Notes: generated from the sequence alone by a model not told the origin. Positions 27,543 through 34,959 are shown, counted from the first letter of the stretch. The stretch is 35,764 nucleotides of DNA from an uncultured Gammaproteobacteria bacterium (GCA_964628705.1 CAZVLW010000001.1:3298-39061); one strand, 5' to 3'. Program-made: numbers and translations.

Positions 27543-28451
27543 TTATTTATTGATATTATCTATAATACCGCCGAGCTCTTCATTAGAATAAAACTCTATT
27601 TCAATCACCCCTCCGCTTTGTCCACGGCGTCGAATAGATACCCTGGTGCCTAATAATTGCTGTAGTTCTTTTTCCCAGTTTTCAATTTGGGGATCTTTTT
27701 TTACTTGACGAGTGTGGGATTTAACTTTAATTTTATCAACTTCCCGCTCAGTATCTTTAACAGTCATTTTAACTTCTTCTGCTTTACGGAATACTTTTTG
27801 CTGGGCTTTTTTATCTTTCAAACTAAGGATGGCTTTAGCTTGCCCTTCACTAATCTTCCCTTCAGTAATAGATTTCTGTACATCTGACGGGAGTTGGAGT
27901 AATCTCAATGTATTATTCAAGGTAGCTCGAGCTATGCTCAGTCGCTTGGCAGCTTCTTCTTGGGTTAAATGGAAATTATTTATGAGACTCTTATAGGCTC
28001 TGGCTCTTTCAATTGGATTTAAATCTTCACGCTGAATATTTTCTATTAAAGATAGCTCCAATTTTTCTAAATCCTTGACTGTTCTAACTATTACTGGAAC
28101 TTTTTTTAAATTTAGCTCACGCGCTGCCCGCAATCGCCTTTCTCCTGCCACTAACTCATATTTGCCCCCCATGGTTTGGGTAGCCACTAAGGGCTGTAAA
28201 ATACCGTGCTGACTGATAGAATTTTTTAATGCATCAAGCTTAAAATCACCAAATTTTTGGCGTGGCTGGTAAGGATTAAGTGTAATTTGGGCAGGTGAAG
28301 TGTAAATTATCTGATTTGCGCCAACTGCACTACTTTTAGGTAGGTAAGAGGCTGGTGAGATATTTTTTTTATTCATTCCCCTGTCCTTTTCGTCCTTGTT
28401 AGGGATAAGAGAACTCAATCCGCGACCTAATGGTTTTTGACTATTCTGCAT
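27543..28451 (-). CDS. parB: Chromosome partitioning protein ParB/Spo0J
   Basis: The ParB box is LVAGERRLRAARELNLKKVPVIV. The HTH is TQEEAAKRLSIARATLNNTLRLL. Confidence 0.93.
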   Translation of the reverse strand: MQNSQKPLGRGLSSLIPNKDEKDRGMNKKNISPASYLPKSSAVGANQIIYTSPAQITLNPYQPRQKFGDFKLDALKNSISQHGILQPLVATQTMGGKYELVAGERRLRAARELNLKKVPVIVRTVKDLEKLELSLIENIQREDLNPIERARAYKSLINNFHLTQEEAAKRLSIARATLNNTLRLLQLPSDVQKSITEGKISEGQAKAILSLKDKKAQQKVFRKAEEVKMTVKDTEREVDKIKVKSHTRQVKKDPQIENWEKELQQLLGTRVSIRRRGQSGGVIEIEFYSNEELGGIIDNINK

Positions 28452-28476
28452 AAAATCTTTTTAATTAATTAAAGTT

Positions 28477-29283
28477 TTAAATTTGATTGTGTAGATAATT
28501 ATTTTTGGTTTTAGTCAAGATATCTTCAAGTAAAATAATTTCGCGCGACAATTTTTCATAAGCTTTAGCGCCTTTTGATTTCTCGTCATAATGTAAGATA
28601 GAACGTCCATAAGATGGTGCTTCTGCTAAACGCACATTTCTAGGAATAACGGTTCTAAAAATACGATTAGGGAAATAACGATAAAGCTCATCAAAAACGC
28701 CTTGGGTTAATTTATGCTTGTCATCATACATAGTCATTAAAGCACCAAGTACTTTCAAGGTGGGTTTAATATTTTGCTGAACCAAATTAATAGTATTTAA
28801 TAATTGACTTAGCCCTTCTAAAGAATAATACTCGCACTGCACGGGGATAATAATTTCATCTGCCGCTACTAAACCATTGATAGTCAATATACCAAGTGAT
28901 GGAGGAGAGTCAATAATAATATAATCATACTGATTTTTAACTTCGTGCAAAATATTCAATAACTTAAACTCCCTATCTTCATCTGAAACCAGCTCAATAT
29001 TGGCCGCCGCTAAATTCTGGTTAGCTGGGGCTAAATGTAGAGTATCAATTAAAGTGCGTTCTATAATATCTACCAAAGCATGATGCCCGGACATTACTTC
29101 ATATAAACCACGGGGGATAGTGTTATAATCAATTCCTAAACCTGATGACGCATTAGCTTGGGGATCTAAATCAATCAACAAAACCGACTTACCGTGATGA
29201 GCTAAATAAGTTGCTAAATTGATAGCAGTGGTGGTTTTGCCCACCCCGCCTTTCTGATTGACAATGGAAATAATACGCGACAT
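28477..29283 (-). CDS. parA: Chromosome partitioning ATPase ParA/Soj
   Basis: The deviant Walker A is NQKGGVGKTTTAINLA. Located adjacent to parB. Confidence 0.93.
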   Translation of the reverse strand: MSRIISIVNQKGGVGKTTTAINLATYLAHHGKSVLLIDLDPQANASSGLGIDYNTIPRGLYEVMSGHHALVDIIERTLIDTLHLAPANQNLAAANIELVSDEDREFKLLNILHEVKNQYDYIIIDSPPSLGILTINGLVAADEIIIPVQCEYYSLEGLSQLLNTINLVQQNIKPTLKVLGALMTMYDDKHKLTQGVFDELYRYFPNRIFRTVIPRNVRLAEAPSYGRSILHYDEKSKGAKAYEKLSREIILLEDILTKTKNNYLHNQI

Positions 29284-30069: not shown

Positions 30070-30135
30070 AAAATATGTATATTAATTTTTAAATTATATA
30101 TCTATTATATCATACCAAGAGTAGTATTAAAAATT

Positions 30136-30163
30136 AAAAAACCCATTTTAAAATGGGTTTTTT
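30136..30163. terminator. Bidirectional intrinsic terminator
   Basis: AAAAAACCCATTTT/AAAATGGGTTTTTT is a perfect palindrome, 8 nt after the lipoprotein stop. Confidence 0.7.
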
Positions 30164-30170
30164 AATTTTT

Positions 30171-30791: not shown

Positions 30792-31748
30792 TTAATTTTT
30801 TAATTGGTGCTCCCCAACTATCCTTTCAACTTCATCCAAATTTTTGGTTTGAACTATTTTCATTTTTAACTCTTTTACATTGGGATGGCCTTTTAGATAA
30901 GCTGCCATAGATTTGCGCAAAGCTATAAAAGGCTTGGAGTCACTAAAATACTTATTATATAGTCTGGCATGCTCTAACATAACTTGGAGTTTTATCTTAA
31001 GAGATAAATTTGATTTATCAATATGCGGATTGAAGAACCAAGGATTGCTGATAGCCGCCCTGCCTATCATAACACCGTCAATATTATATTTTTGGCATTT
31101 TAGTTCGGCGTCTTCAAGATTAAAAATATCCCCATTACCAATTACAAGGGTGGGGCTATTTTTTGCTAATTTTTTAATTTTATCCACCTCTTCCCAATGG
31201 GCGGGCACTTTTGACATTTCTCGGCGAGTGCGTAAATGCATAATAATAGCCGCAGGTGAAGTTTCTAATAAATTTTTAGTCCACTCAATGGTTTGGATTT
31301 TATTAAATCCCAAACGTGTTTTAACGCTAACCGGCAATTGTGGAGCACCTGCTTGAGTAGCTTGTATTATTTGCTGGGCAAGTTTGGGATGTTTGATTAA
31401 GGCTGCACCTGATCCTTGTTTGTTGATATTTTTATCAGGACAGCCCATATTTATATCAATCCCGTCAAAACCAAGCTTATCTAAAAGCTTGGCTGTTTTA
31501 TAATAATTTTCAGGATTAGCCCCAAAAATTTGTGCTACAATAGGATGCTCTTGCTCGCCAAACTCCAAATTAGGCATCAATCTTTCCCGCCCTTCAGACA
31601 TCAATCCATCAACAGAAGTAAATTCAGTCCAAATTACATCAGCTTTACCGTATTTAGCCACCAACTCCCGATAAGCTCTGTTGGTTATATCTTCCATGGG
31701 TGCTAAACATAAAATGGGTTTTTTAAATTTCTGCCAAAAATTATTCAT
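30792..31748 (-). CDS. dus: tRNA-dihydrouridine synthase
   Basis: LAPMEDITNRAYR, DINMGCP, VSVKTRLG, HLRTR and VMIGRAAISNPWFF are all Dus-family signatures. The start overlaps the upstream ORF by 8 nt. Confidence 0.9.
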   Translation of the reverse strand: MNNFWQKFKKPILCLAPMEDITNRAYRELVAKYGKADVIWTEFTSVDGLMSEGRERLMPNLEFGEQEHPIVAQIFGANPENYYKTAKLLDKLGFDGIDINMGCPDKNINKQGSGAALIKHPKLAQQIIQATQAGAPQLPVSVKTRLGFNKIQTIEWTKNLLETSPAAIIMHLRTRREMSKVPAHWEEVDKIKKLAKNSPTLVIGNGDIFNLEDAELKCQKYNIDGVMIGRAAISNPWFFNPHIDKSNLSLKIKLQVMLEHARLYNKYFSDSKPFIALRKSMAAYLKGHPNVKELKMKIVQTKNLDEVERIVGEHQLKN

Positions 31749-32229
31749 ACTTTATAATATTAATTTTACGTCTTAACCAAAACATACCTACCACTGGTAA
31801 AAGGATTGTGCTTAGCATAGCAAAAAATAACCACCAAGTCCAGCCGACTTGGGACGTAATTTTTATTTTAACTCCGGGAGAAGCGCCTAAATCACCAGCT
31901 TGTTTATTTTTAGCAAAGATTTTTAATTGATAATCATAATTGCCGGGCAATAATTTTTGGTATCTTAAATTAATTCTTTTTTGTGCCAAAGGTTCAAGAT
32001 AGAATGAATCTTGCCTGAGATGAATATTTTGAGTGTGTGGCTCTATTTTAAGCTGATATATAGCTGGCTGCTTACCAATGTTGGTAATTAAAATTTCTTG
32101 CTCAATGTTTTGTAAACTCTTAGCTTGGATAGTAATATGTGCGGGTGTGGCTTGAACACCTAAAGCCAAACAAGACATAGGGTGTAAAAAAACAATCACC
32201 AGTATAACTGTTTTTAATAATCTTTTCAT
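31741..32229 (-). CDS. Small secreted beta-rich protein with a C-terminal TM anchor (unknown family)
   Basis: N-terminal signal peptide and a ~100-aa beta-rich body. C-terminal WWLFFAMLSTILLPVVGMFWL helix followed by an RRK stop-transfer sequence. Confidence 0.65.
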   Translation of the reverse strand: MKRLLKTVILVIVFLHPMSCLALGVQATPAHITIQAKSLQNIEQEILITNIGKQPAIYQLKIEPHTQNIHLRQDSFYLEPLAQKRINLRYQKLLPGNYDYQLKIFAKNKQAGDLGASPGVKIKITSQVGWTWWLFFAMLSTILLPVVGMFWLRRKINIIKYE

Positions 32230-32258: not shown

Positions 32259-34040
32259 TTATTTCTCTGCCCAAAAGATAAGATTGGCTGATTTTACACC
32301 ACTAACTAAATAACTGGTTGGCACTTGAAGCGAAAGAATATAATCTTGACTTTGCAGAGCTGGTAATTCATCGCCAAAAGAAGCCCATGGGTGAGTATTA
32401 ATAGTTAAGTTATTTTTAAACAAATCATCTCCATTTAAGGTGGCTGAAAGGGTAACCTGATTTGAACTTTGATTGCTTAACTCTATACTGGCTGTAGCTA
32501 TATCACCAGAAGATAGTTGACCAAAATTGATATGACTTTTGTTGACTAATAAAGCTATACTATCCCCCGCTACATCACCGTTTTGTGATATGATTACTTC
32601 GGCTTGCAGATTAATGGGTTCACTTGAGAGACTACCTATATGTAAGGTAACTTGATTGCTTCTGACATACCCCGGCATATCTAAATATGCGCGGTGAAGG
32701 CCGTTTTGATCAAAGCTTAATTGCAGCTGGCCCAAATTGTCAGTTGTCTTTAAATCTTCATCCAACATAATTTCAGCTTGGTTAAAATTCTGCCAACTCC
32801 CGTCTTGATAATATTCAGCGGTTAAAGTGACGGGTTGATTGATTTTTAGGGTTGTTTTATCTGCTCTAAGTCGAGTCGGCTGCCAACCCCATTCGCCAAA
32901 ATACCACAGCAATTTGTCATCTGAATTTAGAGAATAATCAGCCGCTCCAACTGAGGGTGAATTAAAATTGACAAAATACATCCAGCCAGTATTACCGCTT
33001 GCTGTATGATTTTTGATAGATGATAAATATGGGCCAAAATCAGTTTTTTCTATAGTATAATTATATCCGCACTCATTGGCTGCTTGTTCAATGGCAGACA
33101 GGGCTGTGTCTGCCTCTGATAGCTCAATCTCACAAATAGTTTGGCTTGGCCCCTCAATGCGTAAATGAATATCTAAATTGTGACTGTCTTCAAAATAGTC
33201 TAGCGGCAAAGTTTGACTACTTAAAGCCAAGGACGCGAAGCTACTCATGGCTTTATTATTGAAATTTGGGTCACTCTCGGGGTCTACCCACCAAAAGCCG
33301 CCATCTGCATCCTGTAGAGAGTTGATAAAATCTATCGGACTTTGGTTTTGACTCCAAGAGCTAAGATCATATTCGGCTTTATTTAAAGCTAAAACCACCC
33401 AAGCAGTAGAGCCGCTATCAGAGTCACCAGCTTGGCTAAATGGGAAACCTCCATCACTATTTTGAAGACTGGCTAAATAATCAAAAGCATTTTGAATGGC
33501 TTGGCTTTGCACAGATACCCCACTTTCCAAAAGTGCCATTATAGCGGCTGCCGTATCATTGCTATCACTTGCGCCGCCCACTTGATAACCCCAGCCTCCA
33601 TCATTATTTTGGTGACTTAAAATATAATCTTGAATATTGTGAAGCATTTGGGTATCATTTTGATTGGCTGAATGGAAGGCCAAGAGTGACCAAAAATCAT
33701 CGTTGATTAAGTCTTTTTCACCCATTTGTCCGTCTTGATAATAAGTTTTGAGTTTTTTAAGATAGTCAATATTACCAAAGGTATGGGGATTTTTGCCAGC
33801 CGCTACGGTTGCCAAGATAATTTTGGCATAATCGGTAGCCAGCTGTCCATTCACTGACTTGATGTGGTCTAAATCTAAATCATCTTCACCCAAAGCAAGT
33901 AGGGCTTGCGTGGTCCATGCGTCTTGAGGTTGTTTTTTAAGATAATCAACAGCTTGGTTAATATCTGCCTGAGAATAGAAGGGTAAACTCAGCATAAGCG
34001 CAAGGGCTAAAAAGAAAAAAAACTTTTTTATTTGAAACAT
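32259..34040 (-). CDS. Secreted transcobalamin-like protein: alpha/alpha-toroid (prenyltransferase-like) repeats + DUF4430-like domain + Ig-like C-terminus
   Basis: Signal peptide ending FYSQA. The toroid repeats read QNNDGGWGYQVGGASDSNDTAAAIMAL, QNSDGGFPFSQAGDSDSGSTAWVVLAL and QDADGGFWW. The DUF4430-like block reads HLRIEGPSQTICE...FGPYLSSI...GWMYFVNFNSPSVGAADYSLNSDDKLLWYFG. Confidence 0.7.
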   Translation of the reverse strand: MFQIKKFFFFLALALMLSLPFYSQADINQAVDYLKKQPQDAWTTQALLALGEDDLDLDHIKSVNGQLATDYAKIILATVAAGKNPHTFGNIDYLKKLKTYYQDGQMGEKDLINDDFWSLLAFHSANQNDTQMLHNIQDYILSHQNNDGGWGYQVGGASDSNDTAAAIMALLESGVSVQSQAIQNAFDYLASLQNSDGGFPFSQAGDSDSGSTAWVVLALNKAEYDLSSWSQNQSPIDFINSLQDADGGFWWVDPESDPNFNNKAMSSFASLALSSQTLPLDYFEDSHNLDIHLRIEGPSQTICEIELSEADTALSAIEQAANECGYNYTIEKTDFGPYLSSIKNHTASGNTGWMYFVNFNSPSVGAADYSLNSDDKLLWYFGEWGWQPTRLRADKTTLKINQPVTLTAEYYQDGSWQNFNQAEIMLDEDLKTTDNLGQLQLSFDQNGLHRAYLDMPGYVRSNQVTLHIGSLSSEPINLQAEVIISQNGDVAGDSIALLVNKSHINFGQLSSGDIATASIELSNQSSNQVTLSATLNGDDLFKNNLTINTHPWASFGDELPALQSQDYILSLQVPTSYLVSGVKSANLIFWAEK

Positions 34041-34065
34041 AAAAAAATCTCCCTTTTCGAGGGAG
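34041..34065 (-). terminator. Expression-platform hairpin: terminator plus SD sequestor abutting the start codon
   Basis: On the minus strand the sequence is CUCCCU-CGAAA-AGGGAG-AUUUUUUU-AUG. The 3' arm is the only SD-like sequence for the gene. Confidence 0.6.
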
Positions 34066-34155
34066 TGTGAGTGGATAATTTTTGCAATATACTACAAAAA
34101 CTAACCTTCACAAACTCTTTACCTCGAAGAGTTAACGAATAATTAAATTTTAATT

Positions 34156-34240
34156 GACGCGACCTGGCTTATCCCAAAATTGGGAATCACAGTTGCGGGA
34201 CAGCGGAGGAGTTGCCTATATTGGCGCACCTCGCTTCGGA
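34156..34240 (-). promoter_or_regulatory. Cobalamin-riboswitch-like aptamer (non-canonical, short)
   Basis: GCUGUCCCGCAACUGUGAU (reverse complement of 34186-34204) resembles the cobalamin core GC.GCCCCCGC.ACUGU. The hairpin UCCCAAUUUUGGGA follows. AAGCCAGG (reverse complement of 34163-34170) resembles the 5' half of the B12 box. The downstream gene is a DUF4430-type protein. Confidence 0.5.
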
Positions 34241-34268
34241 CAATTAAAACTTTTTGTAAAGTAAATTT

Positions 34269-34297
34269 ATATTAATTTAGATGATTAAAAATTGCAA
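34269..34297 (-). promoter_or_regulatory. Sigma70-type promoter TTGCAA-17-TAATAT for the riboswitch-led operon
   Basis: The -35 hexamer is at 34292-34297. The spacer is 17 nt. The -10 hexamer is the reverse complement of 34269-34274. Confidence 0.45.
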
Positions 34298-34314
34298 GTG
34301 GATAACTAAACAAA

Positions 34315-34548
34315 TTAATGATGGTTGGCGTAGTTTTCTTCAGCCATCTGCCTAAACTGCTCGGCTCCCTTTTTATCTACAAACCACTCTAACATTTGTG
34401 AATCTGTTAACTCTTTTTCATTAATACCCAACTCTTTAGCTGCAAGCTGACGATTTCTCTGGTTGGTAGCTATCTCAATTTGTTTTTGATTATAATCTGC
34501 TAAATTATTTGGATCAACATATATATCTGGGGGGACTTCTGGTGGCAT
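34315..34548 (-). CDS. Small hypothetical protein immediately downstream of the PIN gene (possible cognate antitoxin/regulator)
   Basis: Its ATG lies 3 nt after the PIN stop. It is 77 aa, with a possible HTH-like stretch RQLAAKELGINEKELT. No family recognised. Confidence 0.5.
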   Translation of the reverse strand: MPPEVPPDIYVDPNNLADYNQKQIEIATNQRNRQLAAKELGINEKELTDSQMLEWFVDKKGAEQFRQMAEENYANHH

Positions 34549-34551
34549 AAA

Positions 34552-34959
34552 TTAAATACAATTTATAATTATTTTATAAGCTTTAGAGGGGGTAGTAATT
34601 TTTAAACCTCTAAATCCATTTAAATCCAATAAGTGGTGGTCGTTGGAAACTAATAAATTAGCTTTGGCTGCTAAAGCACAAGATATGAGCTTATTATCCT
34701 CGGGGTCTTCTCGCACCACTATTACTCGCGGTGTTTTGTTGGTTTTATTTTTATCTTTAAATATCTGATTGAGTTTTATCATTTTTTTACCAGCGGCTTT
34801 TCCAATATTAGATAAAATAAGATTAGCTTCTTTAAGTATAGCATGGCTCCACATTAAATCAATTTTACCCCGTTTAGCTAATTGAATTAATTTTGCTGAA
34901 AAGCTATTTTTGTTAAAACTCGTGGCCACTAATAAGTTGGTGTCAATAACTATCTTCAT
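34552..34959 (-). CDS. PIN-domain ribonuclease, putative toxin (PIN_3/TIGR00305-like)
   Basis: Conserved acidic residues appear in IVIDTNLL, REDPEDNKLISCA and LLVSNDHHLL. Confidence 0.8.
   Translation of the reverse strand: MKIVIDTNLLVATSFNKNSFSAKLIQLAKRGKIDLMWSHAILKEANLILSNIGKAAGKKMIKLNQIFKDKNKTNKTPRVIVVREDPEDNKLISCALAAKANLLVSNDHHLLDLNGFRGLKITTPSKAYKIIINCI

Follow-up and report, generated by a model that had tools for sequence, protein, structure and literature searches.

What controls the gene for a 593-aa secreted, transcobalamin-like protein on the minus strand of the window (the whole 35,764-nucleotide stretch of DNA analysed here), and is the RNA leader ahead of it a known regulatory element or something new? 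An earlier note had pointed to a promoter, cobalamin-riboswitch-like motifs, a short hairpin and a terminator whose seven U residues stand directly before the AUG, and all of these minus-strand elements were found by reading and mapping (Table 1). The same note had leaned toward a minimal or divergent corrinoid-sensing class. That part of it does not stand: the leader passes the curated RF01482 threshold and has the standard class II layout, including a P13/L13 element that had been overlooked.

Identity, promoter and class II layout of the leader

An Rfam 15 scan of the whole window gave two matches at gathering threshold, one a tRNA and the other the RF01482 'AdoCbl riboswitch aptamer' at 34265-34105 (-), which scores 67.2 bits vs a gathering score of 50 (E 1.9e-10) and aligns untruncated with the full model (positions 1-149 of 149). 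We thus have a cobalamin riboswitch (clan CL00101) of an established type, RF01482, class II, whose element, architecture and mechanism are all known. The 222-nt leader also folds more stably than its shuffled versions (minimum free energy z = -4.78, with 0 of 200 shuffles folding as well), and the GC-rich core described earlier is evident, with a G+C content of 0.45-0.52 over 34170-34259 vs 0.17-0.22 in the flanking spacer. Matches to PyrR (30.6 bits vs a gathering score of 54) and Phe_leader in 34013-34134 are sub-threshold and were rejected as reflecting hairpin-plus-U-run shapes.

The claim that the leader has its own promoter is supported by conservation of position across orthologs. The TTGCAA/TAATAT pair is orthologous in position to the TTGACA-17-TAAAAT promoters of relatives, and most close orthologs carry TTGACA/TTGCCA-17-TAAAAT/TAAGAT at an equal distance from P1. 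Calling this promoter near-consensus was only partly justified: TTGCAA-17-TAATAT is present, but it agrees with the consensus at 8 of 12 positions and falls below the 9 of 12 used as the cut-off in the promoter scan. Transcription would start near 34262, about 7 nt past TAATAT. Between the -10 hexamer and P1, at about 34262-34253 (-), the window has UUACUUUACAA, which belongs to a motif CAC(C/U)UUAACAA conserved at this place in close orthologs; by inspection, its matches to GGUG after P13 or to J1/13 as possible pairing partners were inconsistent between loci.

Cobalamin class II riboswitches are defined by the lack of a P2 arm and of a large P6 extension, P6 being a simple stem-loop (PMC7367189). 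The window leader shares the core junction, the B12-box region and the kissing loop with classical Cbl-I riboswitches (RF00174; E. coli btuB, T. tengcongensis), but it lacks their P2 loop-stem-loop and has no P7-P11 extension on P6; only 1 nt separates P1 from the CCGA:UCG-G helix, and P6 ends in a 5-bp hairpin (UCCCAAUUUUGGGA, 34185-34172 (-)). A J1/3 of about 1 nt combined with a short P6 hairpin is the layout described for AdoCbl-binding Cbl-IIb. P1 has 12 bp in the Rfam alignment (34252-34241 with 34156-34145), the core motif GCUGUCCCGCAACUGUGAU begins at 34204 (-), and the B12-box-like AAGCCAGG begins at 34170 (-), inside the P6 region. As in other RF01482/Cbl-IIb-like riboswitches, there is a four-way junction with a conserved GCAACUGU and AAGCCAGG core, no P2 arm, a short P6 and a P13 hairpin that kisses L5. 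Unlike these, the window leader has an insertion of 13-16 nt in L4 (larger in some relatives), belongs to a Patescibacteria (CPR) host lineage and precedes the gene of a transcobalamin-like surface protein.

The features that had appeared anomalous are either usual in this family or misassigned, and two of them involve the L4 insertion, at 34228-34210. In the Rfam alignment L4 holds 16 nt vs 4 expected by the model, and the insertion breaks this loop, which is usually a T-loop docked onto P6. The sequence AAUAUAGGCAA, previously taken for the GGGAA junction, lies inside this insertion, and the GGGAA-like junction of the window leader is CCGAA at 34239-34235. The P4 loop had been described as not visible; its GGUG...CUCC element is present, split by the insertion, and reads GGUGAAAAUCC in insertion-free relatives. 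A short B12 box is the family norm, and the aptamer is longer than the 85-95 nt first estimated, as the functional RNA reaches the end of P13 at 34113, about 140 nt. L4 is an insertion hot spot, with extra hairpins at the same site of about 20 nt in locus L094, about 40 nt in L019 and about 70 nt in L006.

Table 1. Mapped and predicted features of the leader and of the gene that it precedes (window coordinates)
Feature	Position	Strand	Basis or remark
DnaA-box-like TTATCCAC, abuts -35 TTGCAA	34298..34305	(-)	possible protein operator
-35 hexamer TTGCAA	34292..34297	(-)	direct reading
-10 hexamer TAATAT	34269..34274	(-)	17-nt spacer, recurring in most close orthologs inspected
P1 5' strand AAGUUUUAAUUG	34241..34252	(-)	Rfam alignment; found independently by RNAalifold
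CCGA	34236..34239	(-)	junction per Rfam; paired by RNAalifold with UCG-G 34162-34158 = P3
P4 (G-GAGG / CCUCC) and loop L4	34205..34234	(-)	Rfam alignment; P4 covaries
P5/L5 GCUGUCCCGCAAC (UG-UCCC-GCA)	34192..34204	(-)	Rfam alignment, covariation; kissing nucleotides CCCG 34199-34196
P6: CUG...CAG base, internal loop, hairpin UCCCAAUUUUGGGA (UCCCA/UGGGA)	34164..34192	(-)	Rfam alignment
P1 3' strand CAAUUAAAAUUU	34145..34156	(-)	Rfam alignment, covariation, RNAalifold
J1/13 linker	34134..34144	(-)	Rfam alignment; UUCACUAAAC-like, partly conserved among relatives
P13 hairpin AACUCUU-CGAGGUA-AAGAGUU	34113..34133	(-)	RF01482 model positions 114-146
Antiterminator 5' strand: UUCGAGG (L13 and P13 5' arm), GAGU (P13 3' arm), GUGA	34108..34128	(-)	minimum free energy fold of truncated transcript
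Middle hairpin, caps antiterminator	34073..34106	(-)	hairpin predicted at this position in 14/14 close orthologs, sequence unrelated
Antiterminator 3' strand UCAC-ACUC-CCUCGAA	34056..34070	(-)	covers whole terminator 5' arm and most of terminator loop
Terminator hairpin CUCCCU-CGAAA-AGGGAG, SD-like 3' arm	34049..34065	(-)	6 pairs, 4 G-C; local energy -8.8 kcal/mol
U7 tract	34041..34047	(-)	direct reading and terminator scan
Regulated gene, 593-aa secreted transcobalamin-like protein	32259..34040	(-)	Pfam, AlphaFold, Foldseek

Homologous leaders and covariation

Of 45 homologous loci, no more than 5 gave a cobalamin match with Rfam at gathering threshold, whereas by eye the same leader is evident in many more. 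A covariance model built from 14 close leaders and run on 96 sources gave 30 clear matches upstream of orthologous genes and two weaker ones. The low Rfam yield is thus due to insertions and divergence and not to absence of the element, and several orthologs are missed at gathering threshold because of their L4 insertions. The leaders of L004, L012 and L043 score best with RF00174. The approximately 30 leaders could extend the Rfam seed, which misses many of them for this reason, and they offer natural variation for studying how a kissing loop is coupled to a terminator. Two additional copies of the riboswitch were observed. One (L093:1-134 (+), 107 bits) stands ahead of a gene for a 329-aa protein with weak toroid-like (SCO2321_fam) similarity; the other is a divergent copy (L001:2493-2633 (-)) facing the opposite direction, toward small ORFs, and a Pfam search of the genes downstream of it gave no match in any.

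Helices and kissing loop covary across these Patescibacteria leaders. In the 32-sequence alignment, standard pairs occupy 88.4% of cells vs 63.0% in shuffles (0 of 500 reach the observed value) and the covariation score is 0.598, compared with 0.176 for shuffles and with 0.09-0.19 for partners displaced by 1-3 columns, although such shuffle statistics overstate independence as the 32 sequences are related. Changes on both sides were seen in 32 of the 38 pairs. P1, P4, P5, P6 and P13 are paired at 81%-100%, with double changes in all pairs of P1 (11 of 11 among the 32 leaders), upper P6 (5 of 5) and P13 (7 of 7). Since this alignment had been fitted to the covariance model, RNAalifold was also run on an unfitted MAFFT alignment, where P1, P4 and P6 were recovered with covariation. 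RNAalifold additionally proposes the CCGA:UCG-G helix, which has four pairs and one C-G to A-U double change, in L094.

The kissing loop is the clearest signal of the comparative test. L5, reading NCCG, pairs with L13, reading CG(A)GN' (CG(A)GG at 34126-34122 in the window). Three of the four pairs are near-invariant, and the variable N:N' pair is CG in 13, UA in 8, GC in 6 and other in 2 of the aligned leaders. An A:U version in L004 was seen by eye only, the model having left its P13 unaligned, and L011 and L013 have a continuous kissing solution, CGCAA:UUGCG or CGCG:CGCG. Both an unpaired L13 nucleotide and a UCCCG-type L5 have been reported in characterised cobalamin riboswitches, the former also for env8 (PMC10327014).

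Expression platform and predicted switching

Downstream of the aptamer, the same platform recurs in close orthologs: P13, a sequence-variable middle hairpin, and a G-C-rich hairpin with a U-tract that abuts the AUG or lies within a few nucleotides of it. The terminator that had been described as abutting the start codon is no peculiarity of the window, as a hairpin with a U-tract (at least 5 U) near the AUG is common to 13 of 14 close orthologs and to most distant ones too. In the window, one A separates the hairpin from U7 (34047-34041), and the AUG comes next at 34040 (-). The combination of hairpin and U7 agrees with the intrinsic-terminator consensus, and the hairpin at 34065-34049 is the only terminator-like site that scanning found in 33500-34800.

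Transcripts were folded after truncation at the end of the terminator loop, which represents the moment before the terminator can close. The minimum free energy structure is then an antiterminator in 13 of the 14 close orthologs, favoured by 3-12 kcal/mol; in L001 the antiterminator is not clear (a difference of 0.5 kcal/mol). For the window, the antiterminator reaches -27.6 kcal/mol vs -20.9 with P13 enforced, an advantage of 6.7. It pairs UUCGAGG (34128-34122) with CCUCGAA (34062-34056), GAGU (34117-34114) with ACUC (34066-34063) and GUGA with UCAC, each helix being stacked on the middle hairpin. Enforcing P13 in the full transcript, which mimics what a ligand-stabilised kissing loop would do, yields P13, the middle hairpin and the terminator. 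When the 5' segment of the terminator was shuffled, 4 of 300 trials reached the preference observed for the window; for 12 of the 14 leaders the number was 17 of 300 or fewer. The sequence CUCGA, the antiterminator partner of L13, recurs in 10 of 14 close orthologs; given that it is terminator-loop sequence, its recurrence argues that pairing with L13 is selected. The minimum free energy fold of the full-length window leader (-29.7 kcal/mol) is the terminator state, so the switch must be kinetic and decided during transcription. A leader peptide, read from a small ORF that starts with GUG just after P13 with the GAGG of L13 as its SD, was considered and rejected because neither GAGG nor the ORF is conserved; the L13 of several relatives is CGAGA, without GAGG.

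We consider it likely that this class II RF01482 riboswitch is a transcriptional OFF switch and that the gene it controls encodes a B12-scavenging surface protein. The aptamer (P1, P3-P6) would fold first and the P13 hairpin next. If a corrinoid is bound, as we infer for this leader, L5 (CCCG) would kiss L13 (CG-A-GG) and lock P13. The 5' arm of the terminator, left without its upstream partner, would then pair with AGGGAG, and the hairpin and U7 would halt RNA polymerase just ahead of the AUG; in transcripts that escape termination, the hairpin may additionally occlude the initiation region. When corrinoid is absent, P13 is predicted to be weak (about -5 kcal/mol) and would be invaded by the emerging 5' arm of the terminator, with ACUC pairing to GAGU of the P13 3' arm and CCUCGAA to UUCGAGG of L13 and the P13 5' arm. 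Stacked on the middle hairpin, the new helices would build a long antiterminator, and the gene would be transcribed.

This platform logic can be compared with that of the repressing corrinoid riboswitch of Priestia megaterium metE, in which the kissing loop stabilises P13 and compensatory mutagenesis proved the logic (PMC10327014). [quoted passage not shown] The window leader shares the UCCCG-type L5 and, by prediction, the stabilisation of P13 by the kissing loop, the pairing of the P13 3' side with the terminator 5' side and the structured region that tops the antiterminator. It differs in that the L13 kissing nucleotides (UUCGAGG) have a further predicted partner, CCUCGAA of the terminator 5' arm and loop, and in that its terminator U-tract abuts the start codon. 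By analogy, the window RNA would work like this known repressing riboswitch, with the capture of L13 by the antiterminator as one modest twist. The cobalamin riboswitch mechanism as known is unchanged by it. With the env8 HyCbl riboswitch (Cbl-IIa; PDB 4FRN/4FRG), the window leader has in common the class II core, the L5-L13 kissing loop and the unpaired L13 nucleotide. However, the J1/3 of env8 is a bulged T-loop, its preference is for HyCbl/MeCbl and its ribosome-binding site is concealed in L13, whereas the window leader has a J1/3 of about 1 nt, places L13 80 nt upstream of the AUG and has a predicted terminator as its output.

Regulated gene, rival readings and a promoter-proximal motif

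The 593-aa protein carries a signal peptide, and its Pfam matches are to a prenyltransferase-like alpha/alpha toroid, to DUF4430 and to Ig-like domains at the C-terminus. Its AlphaFold model has a mean pLDDT of 87.7, and the top 15 Foldseek matches in the PDB are haptocorrin, transcobalamin and intrinsic factor (E 2e-10 to 8e-9, about 420-440 columns); a profile search matched the transcobalamin beta domain weakly. Secreted bacterial proteins that combine such a toroid with SLBB were predicted to be B12 binders in 2007 (PMC1796856). The protein is transcobalamin-like and most likely a B12-scavenging surface protein. Its named homologs come nearly all from Patescibacteria/CPR genomes, the best being 45% identical. 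In the literature library that was searched, no paper linking cobalamin riboswitches with Patescibacteria/CPR was found, so host and regulon are mildly new. With its support from sequence comparison, the locus is a clean case of B12 sensing in a CPR bacterium that is ultra-small and auxotrophic, and it ties an unannotated family of transcobalamin-like surface proteins to corrinoid scavenging.

In most of ten related loci, three further genes come next, whose products are one protein of about 167 aa, a small one with DUF4430 and a membrane protein with DUF6580. BtuR (ATP:corrinoid adenosyltransferase) adjoins about half of the ten and class II ribonucleotide reductase adjoins three. In the window, only a 162-aa gene follows; the small DUF4430 and DUF6580 genes are absent. 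The small operon proteins had no match in NCBIfam, and the best PDB sequence match to the relatives' DUF6580 protein (6fnp_A, E 0.11) is not significant. The 162-aa gene overlaps the start of a dihydrouridine synthase (dus) gene by 8 nt (window 30792-32229 (-)), and thus dus may be co-transcribed and under B12 control.

Three rival readings concern the output, the class and the ligand. The same riboswitch might control translation only, with the hairpin at 34065-34049 blocking ribosome access, without termination, by sequestering either AGGGAG or an A/U-rich landing site just upstream of the AUG. AGGGAG does form the 3' arm of that hairpin, 8 nt from the AUG, and class II riboswitches of the env8 type regulate translation via P13 (PMC10327014). 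Furthermore, intrinsic-terminator-like sites are not enriched in the window (16 found vs 14 expected, in both of two scans), which makes the reliance of this lineage on intrinsic termination no more than putative. On the other hand, an SD-like motif within 20 nt upstream was seen for only 3 of the 31 window genes, and what precedes most starts is an A/U-rich run such as AUUUUU. This suggests that initiation in the host is largely SD-independent, and SD-dependent initiation is probably not its rule. The earlier proposal that the hairpin hides the only SD is therefore sound insofar as AGGGAG is SD-like, but doubtful as to its function, and AGGGAG is more safely read as the 3' arm of a terminator. 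A G-C-rich stem followed by at least 5 U in 13 of 14 close and in most distant orthologs is the signature of an intrinsic terminator. Translational control alone thus appears decidedly unlikely, and termination in the host is the output that we infer for the transcriptional OFF switch.

A so far unclassified corrinoid-sensing class, minimal or divergent, could be argued from the unusual insertion in L4, from the detection by Rfam at gathering threshold of just 5 of roughly 30 homologous leaders, and from the absent P2 arm and P7-P11 extension. This reading is highly improbable and largely refuted by the covariance-model match, for the window RNA lies 17 bits over the RF01482 gathering threshold along the whole model, the known class II is itself defined by the lack of P2 and of the P6 extension (PMC7367189), the leader has both P13 and the kissing loop, which covary, and the relatives missed by Rfam differ mainly by insertions. 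Within the RF01482 type, the architecture and mechanism may be as described with an effector other than AdoCbl, such as methyl- or hydroxocobalamin or a corrinoid with a different lower ligand. Class II members span a broad range of MeCbl/AdoCbl selectivity that can be shifted by small peripheral changes (PMC6158498, PMC7367189), and corrinoid riboswitches respond to several corrinoids (PMC10327014). We regard another effector as unlikely but deserving of some weight, since the almost continuous P1/P3 (1-nt J1/3) and the short P6 hairpin are those of AdoCbl-binding Cbl-IIb, and the loci of relatives often lie beside an adenosyltransferase (about half of those checked) and sometimes beside the AdoCbl-dependent class II ribonucleotide reductase. 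Support for corrinoid binding itself comes from the context, namely the transcobalamin-like regulated gene and, in relatives, BtuR and NrdJ as neighbours. Together with these neighbours, a layout like that of Cbl-IIb makes AdoCbl the favoured candidate ligand, but class II selectivity is known to be labile.

The riboswitch promoter is also marked by the DnaA-box-like TTATCCAC that abuts its -35 hexamer, one of only 3 exact copies in the window. In the 100 nt upstream of the riboswitch, TTATNCAC occurs at a density of 3.8 per kb vs 0.14 elsewhere in the same 29 loci, an enrichment of about 27-fold. A DnaA-box-like TTAT(N)CAC lies 0-40 nt upstream of the -35 hexamer in 11 of 29 loci (the window, L001, L006, L008, L015, L017, L089, L091 and others), and further loci carry the near-matches TTATCCCC and TTATCCTC. 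A second copy of TTATCCAC, at 34078-34071, coincides with the 3' arm of the middle hairpin. Relatives do not conserve the sequence of this hairpin, and the copy was dismissed as probably coincidental. It is a rather improbable idea, in our judgement, that the B12-scavenging operons of many Patescibacteria combine dual control, by the riboswitch and by a DnaA-box-like operator (TTATCCAC) abutting the -35, with a 'loop capture' variant of the platform. If true, such an operator could couple the supply of cofactor for AdoCbl-dependent class II ribonucleotide reductase to replication status, and loop capture would mean that one set of L13 nucleotides has two alternative partners, L5 in the kissing loop and the 5' arm of the terminator.

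A few minor observations concern the surroundings. With up to one mismatch, TTATCCAC occurs 65 times in the window vs 30.5 expected (0 of 100 shuffles reach this), and parA/parB lie at 27543-29283; this excess together with parA/parB suggests that the fragment may be origin-proximal, or that the k-mer is favoured otherwise. Immediately upstream of the riboswitch promoter, at window 34315-34959 (-), a 77-aa ORF is followed by a gene for a PIN-domain protein (PIN_3, E 9e-17), an arrangement that resembles a toxin-antitoxin pair of the VapBC type. Among the terminator-like structures of the window, the longest is a perfect 19-bp A/T-rich hairpin with a GGG/CCC core at 30129-30170 (+), between two convergent or adjacent genes.
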